Source: Escherichia phage VerenaGrendelmeier_Bas101
Reading direction: 5' to 3' (one strand)
DNA length: 64,000 bases
Sequence record: PQ850631.1
The notes under the pieces are model-generated. The model did not search any database and was not told the origin of the DNA. It was given only the letters and a program-made list of their open reading frames with translations. Below, piece after piece: positions 1-63,012 of the stretch. Numbering within the stretch: position 1 is the stretch's first letter; each line of letters begins with the position of its first letter. The position numbers and the translations under genes are program-made.

Positions 1-1428
1 ATGTACCAGTTGAATCCTGCTTTAAAAGAAGTCTGGAAGACAAAAGCGCGATACAAAGTAATATACGGCGGTCGTGCATCTTCCAAATCGCATGATGCCG
101 CTGGTTTTGCTATTTATTTGGCGGCAAACTTCAAATTAAAATTTCTTTGCGTGCGACAATTCCAGAACAAGATTTCTGAATCTGTATATACTCTATTAAA
201 AGACAAAATAGAGATTTCTGATTTCAAAGATGAGTTCAATTTATTAAAGAACTCTATTGAACATAAAAGAACTAAATCTGAATTTCTATTTTACGGTATC
301 GCACGTAACGTTGATGAAATCAAATCAACGGAAGGTGTTGACGTCCTTTGGTTGGAAGAAGCGCACGCGCTTACTGAAGAACAGTGGGACATTATTGAGC
401 CGACAATCCGTAAAGAAGGGTCCGAAATATGGATCATCTTTAACCCTGATGAAGAGGCTGATTTCGTCTACCAAAACTTTGTTATGCGACCGCCGAAGAA
501 TGCCATTGTTAAAAAGATAAACTGGCAAGACAATCCATTTTTGTCGCAAACAATGCTGGACGTTATTGCAGGCATGTACGAGCGTGACCCGAAAAAGGCA
601 GAGCACGTTTATGGCGGCGTGCCGAAGACTGGCGGCGACAAATCTGTAATCAACCGCGCATTCGTTAAGGCCGCTCTTAATCTCCACAAACACCCTACGC
701 TGGGATGGAGTTTGTCAGGGTCTAACCGTATAGGCTTTGACGTAGCGGACGATGGCGACGACCTTAACGCCACTGCATTCGTCACAGGAAACGTATTGCG
801 CGGCATCAAGACTTGGGAAGGTCTGGAAGATGAATTGTTGAAATCGGCAAGCGGAGTTTGGAAAGATGCGCTTACATTTGGCGCTTCTATAACTTATGAC
901 GCCATCGGTGTCGGCGCTTTTGCTGGTTCAAAATTTGATGAACTAAACGAGTATGCAATACATGAAAATCCATCATTTCCAAGAATCGAATTTAATGCGT
1001 TCAACGCGCAAGGGTCTGTTGATGATCCTGATGACGTTTTTCTTGAGCTACCACACGTTGAAATACTCAATAAAGACCATTTCGCAAACATAAAAGCGCA
1101 AAAGTGGACTGAAATTGCAGAGAGATTCAGAAAGACATACGAATATGCAACTGGGCAAGCCGTATATCCGACTGATGAATTGATTTCAATCGACACCGAT
1201 GGTATACCGGAACTTGGGATTCCAGCTTGGACTACTGAAGAGATTGAGACGTTTCTTTTTGAGATGTCAGCGCCGCGCAAAGATACGTCTGTTCTTGGCA
1301 AGTTCAAAGTTGAATCCAAAAAGGATATGGCAAAGCGTGGAGTCAAATCACCTAACAAAGCGGACGCAGCAATCATGGCATTGATGAAACCAATTGTTGC
1401 AGCATCCGGCTTCTTCTCTAACCTTTAA
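1..1428 (+). CDS. terminase large subunit
   Basis: 475-aa ORF starting at window base 1; N-terminal P-loop-like KVIYGGRASSKSHD; directly upstream of portal-like gene. Confidence 0.7.
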   Translation: MYQLNPALKEVWKTKARYKVIYGGRASSKSHDAAGFAIYLAANFKLKFLCVRQFQNKISESVYTLLKDKIEISDFKDEFNLLKNSIEHKRTKSEFLFYGIARNVDEIKSTEGVDVLWLEEAHALTEEQWDIIEPTIRKEGSEIWIIFNPDEEADFVYQNFVMRPPKNAIVKKINWQDNPFLSQTMLDVIAGMYERDPKKAEHVYGGVPKTGGDKSVINRAFVKAALNLHKHPTLGWSLSGSNRIGFDVADDGDDLNATAFVTGNVLRGIKTWEGLEDELLKSASGVWKDALTFGASITYDAIGVGAFAGSKFDELNEYAIHENPSFPRIEFNAFNAQGSVDDPDDVFLELPHVEILNKDHFANIKAQKWTEIAERFRKTYEYATGQAVYPTDELISIDTDGIPELGIPAWTTEEIETFLFEMSAPRKDTSVLGKFKVESKKDMAKRGVKSPNKADAAIMALMKPIVAASGFFSNL

Positions 1429-6551: not shown

Positions 6552-6584
6552 ATTCATCGGCAAAGGATTGCCGCGAGTTTTATA

Positions 6585-6850
6585 CGTATAATGACGTATC
6601 ATCCGTATCAAGTAAGTTGTTGTTTTCAAAAGAATCTTACGGATGATACGCGTTGCCGCCGTACCATATAGGAATTCAAATAAATTAATTTAAAATTATA
6701 TATCTAATTTAATTTTATTTTTTTATAAACTCTTATATATGAAAAGTATCCGTATCATCCGTATCATCCGTAGCACACCAGTGATAGCGCGACTTATACA
6801 CCGATACGGATAAAAATACGCCTCATTTTATCCGTATCATCCGTATCACA
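6585..6850. repeat. control region A: conserved 14-mer CGTATAATGACGTA, 9-bp ATCCGTATC iterons and AT-rich tract
   Basis: 14-mer at 6585-6598; iterons at 6597-6610, 6637-6666 (inverted), 6748-6773 (three tandem units), 6803-6812, 6828-6848; AT-rich 6670-6745. Confidence 0.6.
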
Positions 6851-6905
6851 CTAATAAAGGCGCGGCTATATCGGTTGTTATACATATTCAAACCATAATT
6901 ATTGT

Positions 6906-6934
6906 TTGCCTAAGTTTTTTTCATTAGATATAAT
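6906..6934 (+). promoter_or_regulatory. sigma70-like promoter (TTGCCT-17-TATAAT) for head/tail operon
   Basis: -35 TTGCCT 6906-6911, -10 TATAAT 6929-6934, 24 nt upstream of the start of 6958..8379. Confidence 0.5.
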
Positions 6935-6957
6935 ACACAATACTTATTTGAGGGTGG

Positions 6958-57345: not shown

Positions 57346-57829
57346 CAAAACGCAACGCATCAATTTTGAAGGTAAAGAATACGAAATAGACGCTCGTGCA
57401 AGATTCGTCGCGCGTGACTCTAACGGAACCATCTGGGCGTACGAGGAAAAACCTGTATGGGAAGAGCGGCGCGGCCAGTGGTTGTATGAAACATGCGGTT
57501 CAGTTTGGTGCGAGCGCATCGACCAAGTGAAGACGTTTGAAAAGAACAGGCCATCATCACGTGATTCATTGAAGGAAGTCGAATCAATCAAAATCAAAGA
57601 CCCAGCGCCGTCGACCGATAAACAATACGCAGTCGGGCAACGTGACATCGAGCAACTCGACGAGGGCGGCTATTATACGCGCCACATCCATGCCATGACT
57701 CAAGAAGGACTTTACAGCAAGTCGGACATCGCCGCTGAACTGGCCCATCGTGACTTACAAATCGACCTTCTCAAGATAGAAGTGCAGAACTTACGAAACA
57801 CCCTGTTAAATACTTGGAGCTTAAAATGA
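57338..57829 (+). CDS. hypothetical early protein
   Basis: 163-aa ORF; N-terminal motif shared with 53544..53861. Confidence 0.4.
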   Translation: MTNKTQRINFEGKEYEIDARARFVARDSNGTIWAYEEKPVWEERRGQWLYETCGSVWCERIDQVKTFEKNRPSSRDSLKEVESIKIKDPAPSTDKQYAVGQRDIEQLDEGGYYTRHIHAMTQEGLYSKSDIAAELAHRDLQIDLLKIEVQNLRNTLLNTWSLK

Positions 57830-58245
57830 TACAGCGTTACGATGTTGATTATTGCACGCAGCACGCTTGCACTTGTGAAGTTGTAAAGGATGATGAAGGC
57901 GGCTATGTTGAATATGAGGACTATGAATCACTACTCAAGCTTAATGAGTCGCTAACAAAAGAGATTGAGCAATACCGCGAGCGCATCAAAGTCGCTGAAG
58001 ATATTATCAAGCTTTTTAGCGAGGCTGTTGAGAAATACAAGGAGCGCAACGTACCGATTAAGGAGGAAGCGTGGACCGTGTGGCGTGGTGGCGATAATCC
58101 GGTGCCTGGTGAGATTGTTGAATACAAGCTGCGCAATGGAGGTGATAAAGTTCTGTCGAGACTTTCTGATCATCTTCACTGGGGTCATATAGGCGCGTTA
58201 AAGGGCAGCGACATCATTGCTTATCGGGTCGTTAAGGAGGGGTGA
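57826..58245 (+). CDS. early protein with shared C-terminal NPVPG...DIIAYRVV domain
   Basis: start at ATG 57826 overlapping upstream stop; CxxC-like N-terminus CTQHACTC. Confidence 0.45.
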   Translation: MIQRYDVDYCTQHACTCEVVKDDEGGYVEYEDYESLLKLNESLTKEIEQYRERIKVAEDIIKLFSEAVEKYKERNVPIKEEAWTVWRGGDNPVPGEIVEYKLRNGGDKVLSRLSDHLHWGHIGALKGSDIIAYRVVKEG

Positions 58246-58694
58246 TGGGCAAACGGCTTATCGCCGCTGGTTGGGCCATACCGAAGTGGGGCCATCGTGC
58301 GCATTACTTTGACGAAGGAGAAGGGCAAAGCCTTTGTGGTCGCGCAACATATTTCGGTGATGAGCGCGTCAGCGGCGATTATATCGATTCGCTTTTAGGT
58401 AAAGGTGATTGCAAGAAGTGCCAAAATATATTAAGAGATATTCTTACGCAAAAAGGATTGCTTGAGCTTGATGAATCGGAAGAAGTAATTGATCTTAAGC
58501 TGGAAGCCAATCACCTTATTAATATGTTCAAGAATTATTACTTAACTAATATGCGCTCAAAGATGCGTAAGGAAGTAATAGAAGAGGTACTCACTTACAA
58601 TCCTTTAAGGATGAATAAAACTAAATTGAAGAAGTTTAATATAATGATAAGGAAGGAATTTAAAAGGCTTGGAGTGAAGAATTTTATATTTTAA
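58242..58694 (+). CDS. hypothetical early protein with Cys cluster
   Basis: 150 aa; CGRATYFGD...CKKCQ; last gene before terminator. Confidence 0.4.
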   Translation: MMGKRLIAAGWAIPKWGHRAHYFDEGEGQSLCGRATYFGDERVSGDYIDSLLGKGDCKKCQNILRDILTQKGLLELDESEEVIDLKLEANHLINMFKNYYLTNMRSKMRKEVIEEVLTYNPLRMNKTKLKKFNIMIRKEFKRLGVKNFIF

Positions 58695-58710
58695 TAGTGA
58701 TTAATGTTAA

Positions 58711-58736
58711 GAGGGCCGATTGGCCCTTTTTGTTTG
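58711..58736 (+). terminator. rho-independent terminator ending early operon
   Basis: GGGCC / GGCCC stem, 4-nt loop, then 9-nt T-run. Confidence 0.65.
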
Positions 58737-58744
58737 CCTGTGGT

Positions 58745-58980
58745 ATGTGAGGATTTATTATCGGATAAAGCGATTGATTTGTGCAAATCTATTAGAGGGT
58801 CATGGGTAGTGAGGATTGTGACGTGAATTTTGTGTCTTGAATATGTGTGCGAATCTGGAAGATTATTGTACTGTGGTGCTGTGGGATTGTAGAGGGAATC
58901 ACTAGGAATTGGAGCGTGTACCGTGGTGTGTGGTCCTGTAGGCTGCGCCGTCTATGGGATTGTCGCTTGAAATTAAAAAG
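58745..58980. repeat. G+T-rich non-coding stretch with GGATTGT repeats
   Basis: plus strand has very few C; GAGGATTGTG at about 58811, GGGATTGTAG at about 58883, GGGATTGTCG at about 58966, plus degenerate copies. Confidence 0.5.
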
Positions 58981-59021
58981 GAGATATAGTTAGCTGGCTA
59001 ACCTTACGCATAGAATTTAAG

Positions 59022-59310
59022 CGTATAATGACGTAAGATTTGGACCTATCCGTAGTTCACTCCACACACTTCTATGGTGCGCCGCGACTGGGTTCAGTGG
59101 TACATCTTACGGATGATACGGATGATACGCGTCGCCGCTATACTTTATACAACTTTGAAAAAAACAATTAACTCCATTTTGAATTAATTTAAATTAATTT
59201 TTTTCTACATCCTCATACTTATACTAAACTTATATTTATACGTATTATCCGTAAGATATAAGTAAAAACAAAGACTTGCGGCAATACGGATGATACGTCA
59301 CGATACGCTT
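59022..59310. repeat. control region B: same 14-mer CGTATAATGACGTA, iterons and AT-rich tract as region A
   Basis: 14-mer 59022-59035; CTTACGGATGATACGGATGATACGCGTCGCCGCTA 59107-59140 matches 6637-6666; iteron copies at 59046-59055, 59243-59257, 59282-59307; AT-rich 59145-59240. Confidence 0.6.
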
Positions 59311-59472
59311 CAACCAGCCAGCAGCGGCTAAGTCATTGATTTGCATAACAAGCGACGAAAGGGATGGATTTCTTTTATACGTATCAAACAGTACACCACG
59401 CACCACGGTCCGTTATCCATCCAGCACTATGATTTGTGTACGTTTATAGCCATAATGAACATCAATCTGCAC

Positions 59473-59501
59473 TTGAATATAATGTCCATCCATTGTATAA
59501 T
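59473..59501 (+). promoter_or_regulatory. sigma70-like promoter (TTGAAT-17-TATAAT)
   Basis: -35 59473-59478, -10 59496-59501 with TG immediately upstream. Confidence 0.4.
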
Positions 59502-59521
59502 TCACACTATTAATTTGCACT

Positions 59522-60010
59522 ATGGGATTTTGCACTATGAGTCAAGATTATGTAGCGATGCCTGAAGACTTTGAAGACCCGCGATTCGCAGAGCACAATC
59601 AGGCTTTATTCGATGAGTTCATTGACCTTGTTATTCAGGGCCATGACATGCGCGCAGCTTTTGCACTAGTATTTGGAATGGAAGTTGCAACGGATAACTA
59701 CACTGGCCAGCGAATCCTTTGCACGCAACGCAATCCATACTACAAGATGCGCTTCAAAAAGCGTATGGAAGAGATGCCACTCAAGGATTTGTGGAGCGTA
59801 AAAGGTGCAATTCACAATTTGGTCAAGCTTGTGCGTGATCCAGAAGTCGCGGCGTCAGCCAAGCTTAATGCTATTCGTGAACTGAATATCATCTATGGCA
59901 TCACGATGATTGATGAAAACGGCAATAGTAAAATGGGCCGTTCTATGGACGATTTCTACAAGGATTTTGGAGAGGCGGCCAAAGAAGGCGAGCAATTCTC
60001 CCGCCACTAG
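59522..60010 (+). CDS. hypothetical protein
   Basis: 162-aa ORF; start region overlaps two TTTGCACTAT copies; start codon uncertain (59522 or 59537). Confidence 0.4.
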   Translation: MGFCTMSQDYVAMPEDFEDPRFAEHNQALFDEFIDLVIQGHDMRAAFALVFGMEVATDNYTGQRILCTQRNPYYKMRFKKRMEEMPLKDLWSVKGAIHNLVKLVRDPEVAASAKLNAIRELNIIYGITMIDENGNSKMGRSMDDFYKDFGEAAKEGEQFSRH

Positions 60011-60029
60011 CCAATTTGCACTATAAAAC

Positions 60030-60063
60030 GGCCCTAGAACACATTGTCTCCACTTCTAGGGCC
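60030..60063 (+). terminator. hairpin after 59522..60010 (weak U-tract)
   Basis: GGCCCTAGAA / TTCTAGGGCC 10-bp stem with 14-nt loop. Confidence 0.35.
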
Positions 60064-60124
60064 ATCGGTAATACGACGGGGAAGGTTGCAACCGTAAACG
60101 CGTTAGAAAGTGTATTATTATAAG

Positions 60125-60388
60125 TCATCTTTTAGTCACCTTACGTAACAATTTACGACCTTCAACCGTCCAATCGAACGACTCCACCAGCAGATTCGCA
60201 CTATAACCTAAGATGATGCGCCCTTTCTCGTTATCGACCCGCCAACAAGTCTCGAATAGCATTCGATTTGCACTATTAACTATCGCCGCAACGCGCGTTG
60301 GGTAAACGCAATTTGCACTATGGTCGTAAAGGGATAAGGTGCGACCACTTCCGATGGACAATGTAGCGATGAGAATAAGCGTATTCAT
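60125..60388 (-). CDS. hypothetical small protein
   Basis: 87-aa ORF; three in-frame TTTGCACTAT copies translate as SAN tripeptides; weak support. Confidence 0.3.
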   Translation of the reverse strand: MNTLILIATLSIGSGRTLSLYDHSANCVYPTRVAAIVNSANRMLFETCWRVDNEKGRIILGYSANLLVESFDWTVEGRKLLRKVTKR

Positions 60389-60438
60389 AAGCCACCAATT
60401 TGCACTATGAAAAGCGACCCCGAAGGGCCGCCATTCGA

Positions 60439-61065
60439 TTAGATAATCTGGAATGTGTAGGACTTGTTGCCGAACTCAAAGTTCAAGCGTCCAGCTTCTT
60501 TAAGCTTCATGCGGAAGCGAATGTGCTTACTATCCGGTAAGCCCAGCGCGGCGAACGCCACGCGGACCGATTTGAACTCGCCTACACCCTCGACCATAAC
60601 GCCGTTACGCGTGAGACGCTTTTGCGCCACTTCCTTGTTATCCCAACTTTTTGCAATACCTTCGCTATTCGAACGGCGATGGGAAGGAGTTCCATTTTGC
60701 ACTACGCAATTTGCACTATCGTTTAGGCCGCTTTTAACGAAGGCTTCATACTCTTCGTCGGTCATCGCGTCGAGTTCTTCCTGGGTCGGCTCGGCCTTTT
60801 TAACGACCGCACGCGCCTTATGCGTTTTTACATCGCTGGACACTTCCTCGCGCGGCTTCGCGTCGGGAATGGGCGATTCGTTGGACGGCTCATCGAGCGC
60901 GTTTAAGGACTCGATTAACGCGATTACGCGAGTCTCGGCGGTACGGCGGTCCGCAAATTTCTTAATCGGCTTCGAACCGGAATTTGCATTATAAAATGCA
61001 ACGAGGTCGGCGGTCTTAGTTGCGATAACGTCGCCGCTAGTCGAGAAACGATTTAAGCTAACCAT
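60439..61065 (-). CDS. hypothetical protein
   Basis: 208 aa; conserved initiation region ATAGGAGTTCATT-ATG. Confidence 0.45.
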   Translation of the reverse strand: MVSLNRFSTSGDVIATKTADLVAFYNANSGSKPIKKFADRRTAETRVIALIESLNALDEPSNESPIPDAKPREEVSSDVKTHKARAVVKKAEPTQEELDAMTDEEYEAFVKSGLNDSANCVVQNGTPSHRRSNSEGIAKSWDNKEVAQKRLTRNGVMVEGVGEFKSVRVAFAALGLPDSKHIRFRMKLKEAGRLNFEFGNKSYTFQII

Positions 61066-62549: not shown

Positions 62550-63012
62550 TCGCGTAAGTCCTTGTTTTATATAGACACCTATATCGGACCGTTAGGGCGG
62601 GTCGCGTAAGTCGTTGTTTTATAAAGGCGCAAAACTTTCCCTTCGTTCCGAACTAAAACGAGGAATATGCCGACCCTTCGCCCGAAAATAGTACGCATGC
62701 GAAATCACATGCATCTCGAATAATCCCCACCGATATTATCCTACACGCAATCATTCGCTTTCGAATCATTATGCTTCATATTATTATGCGTCGAATCATT
62801 CGCTTTCGAATTGTAACGCTGGAAACTGTAACGGCGATTGATTATTGCGTTCGTGTGGTTTTTAGGGCATGGGTCTTTTGGTGCGTTTTGGTGCTTGATG
62901 GAATTTGCGGTACACTAATCAAAATACGACACATTTGGTCCACTAACTTTTCAAAGAAAAAGTCCTAGACAGTACCGTACTATTTTGTACCCACAGGAAT
63001 TTGCAGTACACT
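62550..63012. repeat. non-coding region with three families of direct repeats
   Basis: TCGCGTAAGTCnTTGTTTTATA at 62550 and 62602; AATCATTCGCTTTCGAAT at 62749 and 62794; GGAATTTGCrGTACACT at 62900 and 62996. Confidence 0.55.

Follow-up and report, generated by a model that had tools for sequence, protein, structure and literature searches.

A conserved G+T-rich tract at the genome end of a PB1-like Escherichia phage: a possible arm of the packaging-initiation region upstream of terS

Introduction

Why is one strand of a short gene-free stretch of phage DNA so rich in G and T, and what might such a stretch do? This question is raised by positions 58745-58980 (the tract) of the 64,000 nucleotides of Escherichia phage VerenaGrendelmeier_Bas101 (PQ850631.1) that were analysed here (the window, 64 kb). 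A first-pass annotation had described the tract as non-coding, poor in C and carrying GGATTGT repeats. It considered a structured non-coding RNA, a protein-binding array, or a part of a replication origin together with a neighbouring repeat and AT-rich element ('region B'). In this study, we found that the tract belongs to a dyad-organised region at a genome end, beside terS, the gene of the small terminase subunit. This region is real, unusual, conserved and previously undescribed, and from its organisation we infer how it might work. We tentatively propose that in this PB1-like myophage the tract acts in cis as DNA, namely as the outer, pacL-like left arm of the region at the genome terminus where packaging starts, a reading that we regard as quite possible and that is weighed below against several others. 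DNA recognition by TerS is poorly understood, and specific binding is weak or undetectable for most systems, including that of phage E217, the structural representative of the family (reviewed in PMC9611059).

The gene-free gap and the genome end

Window positions 58500-59600 matched 28 phage records at 90-96% identity, all of them Escherichia/Shigella myophages of Wifcevirus (e.g., FEC19, WFH, ECML-117 and Mansfield), PB1-like phages with genomes of 66-72 kb. Phages WFH and WFC were deposited with terminal repeats of ~3.7 kb (Korf 2019, PMC6563267). The WFH record aligns with its start to window position 59176 and with its end to 62878, WFC shares this start, and the Mansfield record, which was opened at a boundary called by PhageTerm, ends at 59175. 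Thus, the left boundary of the direct terminal repeat lies inside an AT-rich core, 195 bp to the right of the tract. It was placed at 59175/6 via homology to records with determined ends, and two independent sources agree on it; the tract as a whole is 195-430 bp away from it.

The tract forms the left third of an 830-bp gene-free gap (58695-59521). From left to right, the gap holds the terminator of an early operon, the tract, a dyad-symmetric cluster of repeats with the AT-rich core, and then terS. The features are as follows.

58711-58733, plus strand: intrinsic terminator of the plus-strand early operon, hairpin GGGCCGATTGGCCC followed by a T-run (TTTTT), read in the sequence; left border of the gap
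58734-58980, unstranded: the tract, candidate outer left arm of the terminus/packaging region; composition extreme, with a skew that is kept in relatives
58981-59139, unstranded: inner left segment, highly conserved in sequence, with repeat variants (59016-59036 and 59047-59056), GGTGCGCCGCGACTGGGTTC (59075-59094) and two copies of TACGGATGATACG (59108-59129)
59140-59260, unstranded: AT-rich core, whose richest 60 nt are 87% A+T; the direct terminal repeat has its left boundary here, at 59175/59176 (from record ends and composition)
59238-59313, unstranded: right-hand repeat copies found by repeat search, namely inverted TACGGATAATACG (59241-59253), a direct copy (59285-59297) and ATACGTCACGATACGCTTCAA, which pairs with 59016-59036
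59385-59430, unstranded: C+A-rich patch of the right arm with ACCACGCACCACGGTCC, the partner of 58918-58934 (from sequence)
59456-59501, plus strand: two overlapping sigma-70-like promoters before terS, TGAACA-16-TATAAT and TTGAAT-17-TATAAT (consensus matches only)
59537-60010, plus strand: terS, small terminase subunit, assigned by phmmer against PDB 7UXE_A; the open reading frame (ORF) opens at 59522 and relatives annotate the start at 59537

The terminator at the left border is annotated likewise in phage WFH and is invariant in ten relatives, and it follows the last ORF of the early operon (58242-58694), so that the tract does start right behind an early-operon terminator, as had been noted. 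Around the AT-rich core, nested inverted repeats are centred at 59165-59182, and the TACGGATGATACG-type repeat gave 11 matches where 0.98 were expected. Between the end of the tract and terS there are 557 bp without an intervening gene. The terS product matches 7UXE_A, 'Small terminase' of phage E217, over residues 3-147 (phmmer against PDB, E = 7.2e-34). This entry is the TerS decamer of Pseudomonas phage E217, in which terS also lies ~58 kb from terL (PMC9611059); here terL is found at window 1-1428 on the plus strand (Pfam Terminase_3), again ~58 kb from terS. An AlphaFold model of TerS computed without an alignment was poor (pLDDT 46.5) and was not used. Since terS is the first gene inside the terminal repeat, virion DNA carries two copies of it.

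The other end of the terminal repeat was mapped in the same three phages. The repeat measures 3,673, 3,701 or 3,784 bp in WFH, WFC and Mansfield taken together, its right boundary being at 62878/9 by WFH and ~83 bp further right in WFC, with a repeat that is 28 bp shorter in Mansfield. The right boundary therefore differs by up to 111 bp among them, and the right end may vary. All three mapped right boundaries fall in or beside one further feature:

62833-62912, unstranded: second G+T-rich tract at the right boundary of the direct terminal repeat, 78.8% G+T, the top 80-nt stretch of the 64 kb; 98% identity to WFH

Hence the two most G+T-rich 80-nt stretches of the window are the right boundary of the terminal repeat (rank 1) and the tract (rank 2). 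Homology between the two was considered and rejected: they have in common only the 10-mer GCGATTGATT and a loose TTAG-GGG-CATGGGT resemblance that is specific to this phage and variable in relatives. To the left of 62833-62912 (62749-62843), two inverted AATCATTCGCTTTCGAAT repeats, two copies of TGTAACG and GCGATTGATT were seen.

Composition and repeated words of the tract

Positions 58745-58980 contain 78 T, 77 G, 56 A and 25 C in 236 nt (65.7% G+T, 10.6% C), which bears out the G+T skew and low C content first described and makes them an extreme of the window. The maximum among all 236-nt stretches is 69.1% G+T (start 58727), and every 236-nt stretch with at least the G+T content of the tract starts within 58645-58748. 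In a 150-nt scan, 58795-58944 took rank 1 (70% G+T, with 56 G and 15 C); in an 80-nt scan, 58810-58889 took rank 2 (72.5% G+T). The tract is thus the composition extreme of the 64 kb and is unlike other intergenic regions. Its plus-strand GC skew reaches +0.556, and G makes up 33% of it versus ~23% for a genome of 46% G+C with an even split.

At least three GGATTGT copies spaced 70-85 bp apart had been reported, and we found them at 58813, 58884 and 58957, with spacings of 71 and 73 bp. The window holds five plus-strand copies, three of them inside the tract, and eight minus-strand copies, while the longer word GGGATTGT is found only at 58883 and 58956. A fourth GGATT of the tract lies at 58751. 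Helical phasing of the GGATT copies was tried and rejected, the distances (62, 71 and 73 bp) giving no convincing integral multiples of 10.5. Within the tract we distinguish the following elements.

58754-58798, unstranded: best-conserved block, TTTATTATCGGATAAAGCGATTGATTTGTGCAAATCTATTAGAGG, with the small palindrome TTATCGGATAA and the motif GCGATTGATT; near-invariant in ten relatives
58813-58819, plus strand: GGATTGT copy 1 (GAGGATTGT); three of nine relatives have GAGTATTGT instead
58884-58890, plus strand: GGATTGT copy 2 (TGGGATTGT); the majority of relatives have GGGATTGG instead
58918-58934, unstranded: GTACCGTGGTGTGTGGT, which as left half forms an inverted repeat with 59395-59411; complementary at 15 of 17 bases, centre at 59164.5, near the genome end
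58957-58963, plus strand: GGATTGT copy 3, within GCGCCG-N5-TGGGATTG (58943-58962); motif common to all four genus sequence types

The word GCGAWTGATT links the conserved block of the tract with the right boundary region, as four of its five exact copies in the window lie at the boundary regions of the terminal repeat (58770; 62749, 62794 and 62834).

Conservation within Wifcevirus

The sequence of the tract itself is common to only ~10 phages (~92% identity). Three further sequence types occupy the same place in the genus (WFC/Bas100/Eco4M-7; RCIP0319; Bas98/99), none of which can be aligned to the tract by BLAST. Despite this, all of them are G+T-rich and C-poor over 150-250 bp. Words common to the four types are GGATT (15 copies), GTGGTG, CCGTGG and GCGCCG, a result reached by none of 300 dinucleotide shuffles, and GGATT is the top 5-mer shared among the non-alignable types. 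CCGTGGTG, part of the element at 58918-58934, is also retained in all four. A scan of IMG/VR for the 14-mer of the repeat gave mostly chance matches and one more Wifcevirus contig, of the WFC type.

Among close relatives, the tract is the fastest-evolving part of the gap, with 53 variable sites in 247 (21%) versus 8 in 130 over 58981-59110. Its polymorphisms are asymmetric by strand (G/T 14 vs A/C 2; C/T 15 vs A/G 7). Single motif copies decay as well: phage FEC19 has no exact GGATTGT and one GGATTG.

Relatives beyond the genus

A tblastn search with TerS gave 358 records. From seven phage groups we compared ten loci: the Wifcevirus sequence types A-D and the loci of Serratia phage MyoSmar, Pantoea phage Kyle, Pseudomonas phage 14-1, Burkholderia phage Maja, Aeromonas phage Gekk3-15 and Xanthomonas phage XcP1. 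All ten have one plan, in which a G+T-rich left arm is followed by an AT-rich core, a C+A-rich right arm and then terS. In the six loci from outside Wifcevirus, the gap before terS measures 690-1070 bp and the core lies 290-500 nt before terS. The left arm peaks at 81% G+T in MyoSmar, 78% in Gekk3-15 and 72% in both 14-1 and Maja, and in each group with a marked arm the core, or the mapped boundary, follows ~170-380 nt to the right of the peak. Compared with the window, the other groups have a much more strongly C+A-rich right arm, with G+T down to 21% in 14-1.

GGATT, specified as the test word from the window alone, occurs in all ten left arms, with 23 copies versus 7.4 expected, a number that none of 500 dinucleotide shuffles reached. 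In the nine arms other than that of the window there are 19 copies versus 6.8 expected. The comparison with related phages that had been suggested at the outset thus shows both the skew and GGATT recurring across the seven groups.

Genome ends also fall at the core in other groups. The PhageTerm boundary of MyoSmar lies ~30 nt to the left of the core, the Kyle record starts inside it, and the first base of Pbunavirus Ab27 is 44 nt to its left; phages Ab27-29 have a single fixed read terminus, from which the first base of Ab27 was set (Essoh 2015, PMC4482731). The other end of the terminal repeat coincides with the second-ranked G+T stretch of the MyoSmar locus and with the top one of the Kyle locus. 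In the MyoSmar arm, a repeat GGTTGTGGTTCGTKGATTGTGG is followed by CTATGGTGCGCCGCGACTGGG, which is identical to window 59071-59091 (21 nt) and forms an inverted pair ~140-150 nt on either side of the AT-rich core. Inverted symmetry about the core exceeds that of shuffles at six loci (the window, WFC, type D, MyoSmar, Kyle and Maja).

Two observations were made in passing on these loci. In the Kyle locus (L139, 3399-3745), a 118-nt imperfect inverted repeat with a score of 39 (10.1 +/- 1.3 in shuffles) is symmetric about the AT-rich core that contains the record start, and an endonuclease VII gene lies ~1.3 kb upstream of it. The right arm reaches an extreme C+A richness in L144 (14-1; 1163-1400), L145 (969-1250) and L141 (3130-3330), with 21-30% G+T and up to 51% C.

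A possible arm of the packaging-initiation region

As read from sequence, the region has three marks of a pac-like site: it adjoins terS, it adjoins a genome end, and short repeats flank the presumed cut. We infer that the terminase, probably through TerS, reads the tract and that the tract may contribute to cutting or packaging. On concatemers, the terminase would assemble on the dyad-organised region of ~800 bp directly upstream of the gene of its own small subunit. TerL would then cut in the AT-rich core at 59175/6, giving the left end of the 3.7-kb direct terminal repeat, and the flanks would position the terminase complex. In the inner flanks, GCGCCG...CTGGG motifs and inverted repeats of the TACGGATGATACG type would serve this purpose; in the outer flanks, it would be a left G+T-rich arm carrying repeated (T)GGATT(G/T), which is the tract, and a right C+A-rich arm. 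Given this outer-flank position and its repeated (T)GGATT(G/T), the tract would take the role of pacL of phage SPP1. Potentially, it offers several weak contact sites for TerS or for TerS-TerL on that side of the cut which belongs to the preceding genome unit, and the similar G+T-rich patch might mark the other end of the terminal repeat. Of the three options considered first, the protein-binding array is the most compatible, as a candidate, GGATT being over-represented in all ten equivalent arms.

In SPP1, the small terminase recognises short repeated boxes in separate contact regions to the left and right of the pacC cut. The SPP1 site (pacL-pacC-pacR) and the gap both span a few hundred bp and are non-coding or close to terS, and the presumed cut of the phage studied here lies in an AT-rich core flanked by repeats and beside terS. 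Unlike SPP1 with its headful-permuted ends, the Wifcevirus phage makes exact 3.7-kb direct terminal repeats, and its TerS contact is a predicted one. Furthermore, the Wifcevirus flanks are mirror images in composition (G+T versus C+A) over hundreds of bp, which to our knowledge has not been described for the SPP1 pac site.

The concatemer junction of T7 and T3 (pacB, SRL/SRR) offers a second comparison. Arrays of short repeats lie directly outside or inside the terminal repeat there as well as here, and the T7/T3 packaging signals reportedly lie in unique DNA just to the left of the repeat in the concatemer, so that the position of the tract relative to the terminal repeat is analogous. T7 and T3, however, belong to an unrelated family with a repeat of 160-230 bp versus 3.7 kb, whereas the phage studied here uses host RNA polymerase. 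Moreover, the T7 arrays consist of regular heptamers without a strong strand skew, whereas the copies in the tract are few and degenerate and the skew is dominant.

Several points weigh against the packaging reading. TerS of E217 showed no appreciable DNA binding in vitro (PMC9611059). The G+T skew is weak in Kyle and XcP1, and the tract, with its 21% variable sites, is the least conserved part of the gap. Single GGATTGT copies are lost in some close relatives, so that no single copy can be essential. The cluster of TACGGATGATACG repeats recurs as a paralogue at 6552-6860, a place without a known genome end, and the inner element may therefore serve regulation or replication. Finally, a skew over ~250 bp that survives full sequence turnover is atypical of arrays of duplex binding sites and hints at a strand-level cause.

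The organisation described here gives experimenters defined fragments and mutations to work with, because terS stands behind a conserved dyad region, the ends fall in the AT core and the arm carries GGATT and the skew. The pattern of terminator, G+T arm, AT core, C+A arm and terS also places genome ends from sequence alone in Wifcevirus and Pbunavirus-like therapeutic phages, which is useful for the synthetic rebooting or engineering of such phages.

Possible strand-level causes of the skew

The long skew that survives full sequence turnover, the decay of motif copies in close relatives and the asymmetric polymorphisms together keep a strand-level cause alive. The mirror-image composition might reflect a strand-specific process that has its centre at the cut, and not duplex binding sites. 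Either concatemer processing and repeat duplication would be the work of a machinery that reads or loads on one strand, or recurrent single-stranded exposure of the 3'-ended strands would leave a local mutational scar. We consider this view as a whole rather doubtful. If it were true, the start of packaging could be recognised across the family from sequence only, by the compositional dyad upstream of terS, and this dyad would provide the first concrete DNA target for the solved TerS decamer of the E217 type.

The purely mutational version treats the tract as a weakly constrained spacer whose G+T content records repeated single-stranded exposure of the plus strand beside the cut or concatemer junction, for example during 5'-3' resection or strand displacement. 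The underlying changes would come from deamination (C to T, A to G) and from oxidation (G to T), and the C+A-rich right arm would be the minus-strand mirror. Skews towards G+T from single-stranded exposure are known from the heavy strand of animal mitochondria and from bacterial leading strands, and the tract resembles these in its one-strand enrichment, its switch of polarity at a defined point and its asymmetric polymorphism. It differs from them in spanning a few hundred bp around a cut, in its very high amplitude (up to +0.556) and in the coexistence of conserved words, and we know of no such local footprint described for phage termini. The rapid evolution of the tract with its composition held throughout (53/247 vs 8/130) is as this explanation would have it, and so is the strand asymmetry, in which G/T outnumbers A/C and C/T outnumbers A/G. 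The polarity likewise fits 3'-ended strands that point at the cut from both sides, the plus strand from the left and the minus strand from the right, and at the right end of the terminal repeat, too, it is the strand with its 3' end there that is rich in G+T. However, mutation bias alone cannot make an over-represented GGATT or shared CCGTGG and GCGCCG islands, and the enrichment of G in absolute terms (33% vs ~23%) goes beyond what C-to-T change gives. In each group with a marked arm, the skew moreover peaks ~170-380 nt from the cut and not beside it, although selection acting on the inner segment might hide a peak there. Polymorphisms are low in number and unpolarised, with a rough Fisher p of ~0.06 for G/T versus A/C. 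Taken together, a mutational footprint is in our view an unlikely account of the tract; if it were true, the skew would record how far DNA ends are resected during phage replication.

A replication origin also comes into consideration, since the GC skew is strongly positive (up to +0.556) immediately behind a plus-strand operon that is heavily used. Rightward read-through of the early-operon terminator would yield a G-rich RNA that forms an R-loop on the C-rich template and primes or opens the adjacent AT element. Origins of the R-loop type are known from ColE1 and from T4 oriF and oriG. An element with repeats and a core of 87% A+T does lie beside the tract, though not within it (59016-59313), and the paralogous repeat/AT element at 6552-6860 is what a phage with two origins would have. 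That paralogue, however, has no comparable G+T arm: it has 66-67% identity to the terminal-repeat boundary element over ~200 bp, a homology that excludes the tract. With G+T on the left and C+A on the right, the region has the polarity of a terminus and not that of a bidirectional origin, what maps to the core is a genome end beside terS, and no initiator gene was identified nearby. There are no DnaA boxes in the tract: no match to TTATNCACA with at most one mismatch was found in 58700-59000, and the boxes are not enriched in the window. By eye, sites for a T7-type primase (GTC) and for DnaG (CTG) number five each among the 25 C's, a modest excess. An origin is thus quite unlikely. What stands of the earlier suggestion that the tract goes with 'region B' is that both belong to one larger cis-acting unit; what does not stand is the nature of that unit, which has a polarity opposite to that of a bidirectional origin. 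As the unit of tract, repeats and AT element holds the physical genome end directly upstream of terS, packaging rather than, or besides, replication is indicated.

A Chi-like decoy for RecBCD was rejected too, no GCTGGTGG with at most one mismatch being present in 58700-59000 (orientation read from the right-hand end).

Transcription and RNA

A third strand-level explanation concerns the minus strand. Rho utilisation (rut) sites are defined by composition, as C-rich, G-poor and unstructured RNA of ~80 nt or more, and not by sequence. The tract could be such a site and act as a transcriptional insulator, at which Rho stops leftward transcripts from the right-hand copy of the terminal repeat before they enter the early operon in antisense. 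The composition of the minus strand falls fully within this definition. Its RNA has 33% C and 10.6% G, the strongest excess of C over G on either strand of the 64 kb (56 C vs 14 G in 58793-58942), and it is almost unstructured, with a minimum free energy of -25.7 kcal/mol for 279 nt. A site defined by composition also fits a composition that is conserved without its sequence, and on the minus strand the terminator hairpin (58711-58733) lacks a T-run. However, no transcript is known or predicted to enter the tract leftward: there is no leftward promoter of at least 9/12 between 58980 and 59520, and in the distant relative 14-1 no minus-strand start lies in the gap, and leftward read-through out of the convergent operon goes no further than 59828, which is within terS and a long way from the G+T arm (Putzeys et al. 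2024). The enrichment of GGATT would also be left unexplained. A rut site is therefore very unlikely, and both it and an origin R-loop are less likely than the mutational footprint as the strand-level cause.

Phage 14-1 is the only relative with mapped transcription starts. ONT-cappable-seq found two starts in its gap, P040 at 59399 within the AT core and P041 at 59807, which are both directed toward terS (Putzeys et al. 2024, Tables S3 and S5), and no start on either strand of the equivalent G+T arm. The right arm of 14-1 is transcribed from P040 as a leader of ~500 nt. This long, C-rich, G-poor and untranslated leader looks like a Rho-dependent attenuator of terS, with which it would fit that excess TerS lowers the infectivity of E217 (PMC9611059).

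The data on 14-1 also bear on the possibility that the tract is part of a regulatory promoter region. Here, the GCGCCG...CTGGGAT(T) motifs, including the third GGGATTGT copy, would be phage-specific promoters of the 14-1 class, and the conserved block with its palindrome would be operators for rightward transcription toward terS. The 'other motif' starts of 14-1 end in GCTGGGNN (P027 ...CGACTGGGTGA, P046 GCCGCGACTACTGGGAA and P047 GGCGCGGCTGGGAT), and have CTGGG as a core shortly before the start. In the window, 59078-59094 reads GCGCCGCGACTGGGTTC and 58943-58962 reads GCGCCGTCTATGGGATTG, relatives having CTCTGGGATTGCC at the latter place, and the motif is kept in all genus types and in MyoSmar. 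However, the 14-1 gap before terS holds no 'other motif' start, and those of 14-1 that were tested had no activity in a reporter assay (Putzeys 2024). The motif moreover spans only the right-hand 40 bp of the tract and leaves 200 bp of skew unexplained, and a genome-wide CTGGG scan of the window was uninformative. We hold this explanation to be improbable. As a separate observation, GGTGCGCCGCGACTGGGTTC (59075-59094) and GGCTGCGCCGTCTATGGGATTG (58941-58962) resemble the 'CTGGG' start motif of 14-1 (Putzeys 2024).

The tract is most probably not an RNA gene. A cmscan of 57500-60500 against Rfam (E up to 10) gave no match in 58700-59000, and the weak matches obtained lie outside the tract (mcrA at 59047-59085, 16.4 bits versus a gathering score of 57.6, and HgcE). 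The tract folds no more stably than its shuffles (z = +0.70 for the plus strand and +1.26 for the minus strand). When nine relatives with differences at 21% of sites were analysed by RNAalifold, the covariation term was +0.28 kcal/mol and one pair in 75 was compensatory. No plus-strand terminator was found between the tract and 59500. G-quadruplexes, another check proposed at first pass, are not predicted in 58700-59000 either, where three patterns (runs of G2+ or G3+ with loops of 1-7 nt; loops of 1-12 nt for G3) had zero matches. The structured non-coding RNA first considered thus finds no support.

It is also extremely unlikely that the tract encodes a small plus-strand RNA, such as a CsrA sponge, or a small protein. 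For the RNA speak the 9-10 GGA in 236 nt, which are the maximum of the window, and a promoter-like TTGCCT-16-TATTAT at 58734-58761 (9/12), which overlaps the start of the block 58754-58798. Composition alone, however, predicts ~6 GGA, an excess of only ~1.5x without structure, on which a CsrA sponge was rejected. The -10 element is absent from type D, the 14-1 arm has no start, and Rfam match, fold excess, covariation and plus-strand terminator are all lacking. As to a protein, two short ORFs touch the tract, 58704-58826 (40 aa) and 58847-58993 (48 aa, GTG start), and the latter is open in ten of ten close relatives. Nonetheless, a Shine-Dalgarno sequence was sought for both and found for neither, and substitutions in the 48-aa ORF are mostly non-synonymous (13 vs ~10 synonymous), with an implausible product rich in W, C and R. 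In tblastn of both ORFs against the arms of the other genus types, only short shared DNA motifs and no protein-level counterpart appeared. A small protein was rejected on these grounds, and the earlier statement that the tract has no plausible ORF is essentially right.

Neighbouring genes and further repeats

In almost all Wifcevirus and Pbunavirus records, terS is unannotated as such and carries the label 'hypothetical protein'. The last gene of the early operon (58242-58694, plus strand) encodes 150 aa (PHROG 2358) with a Cys-rich N-terminal part (C...CxxC). It occurs in two forms in the genus, of 150 aa or of 177-178 aa, which differ in their C-terminal halves. As the variable non-coding tract starts directly after this two-form gene, the place appears to be a mosaic junction.

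A second gene-free region lies between late plus-strand genes at 6552-6957. An AT-rich core (~6670-6740) is surrounded there by five exact copies of TACGGATGATACG, which lie in both orientations, and a near-consensus promoter TTGCCT-17-TATAAT (~6908-6936) stands behind the element. This region could be a second origin or a shared regulatory site. Finally, the motif AAAACAANGACTTRCG gave four matches versus 0.56 expected, at 59265-59280 on the plus strand and at 62553-62568, 62605-62620 and 6611-6626 on the minus strand. One match thus lies a short way inside the terminal repeat at its left end and two, inverted, lie near the right end, so that the repeat bears inverted copies of a shared word near both its ends; the fourth match lies in the 6.6-kb element.

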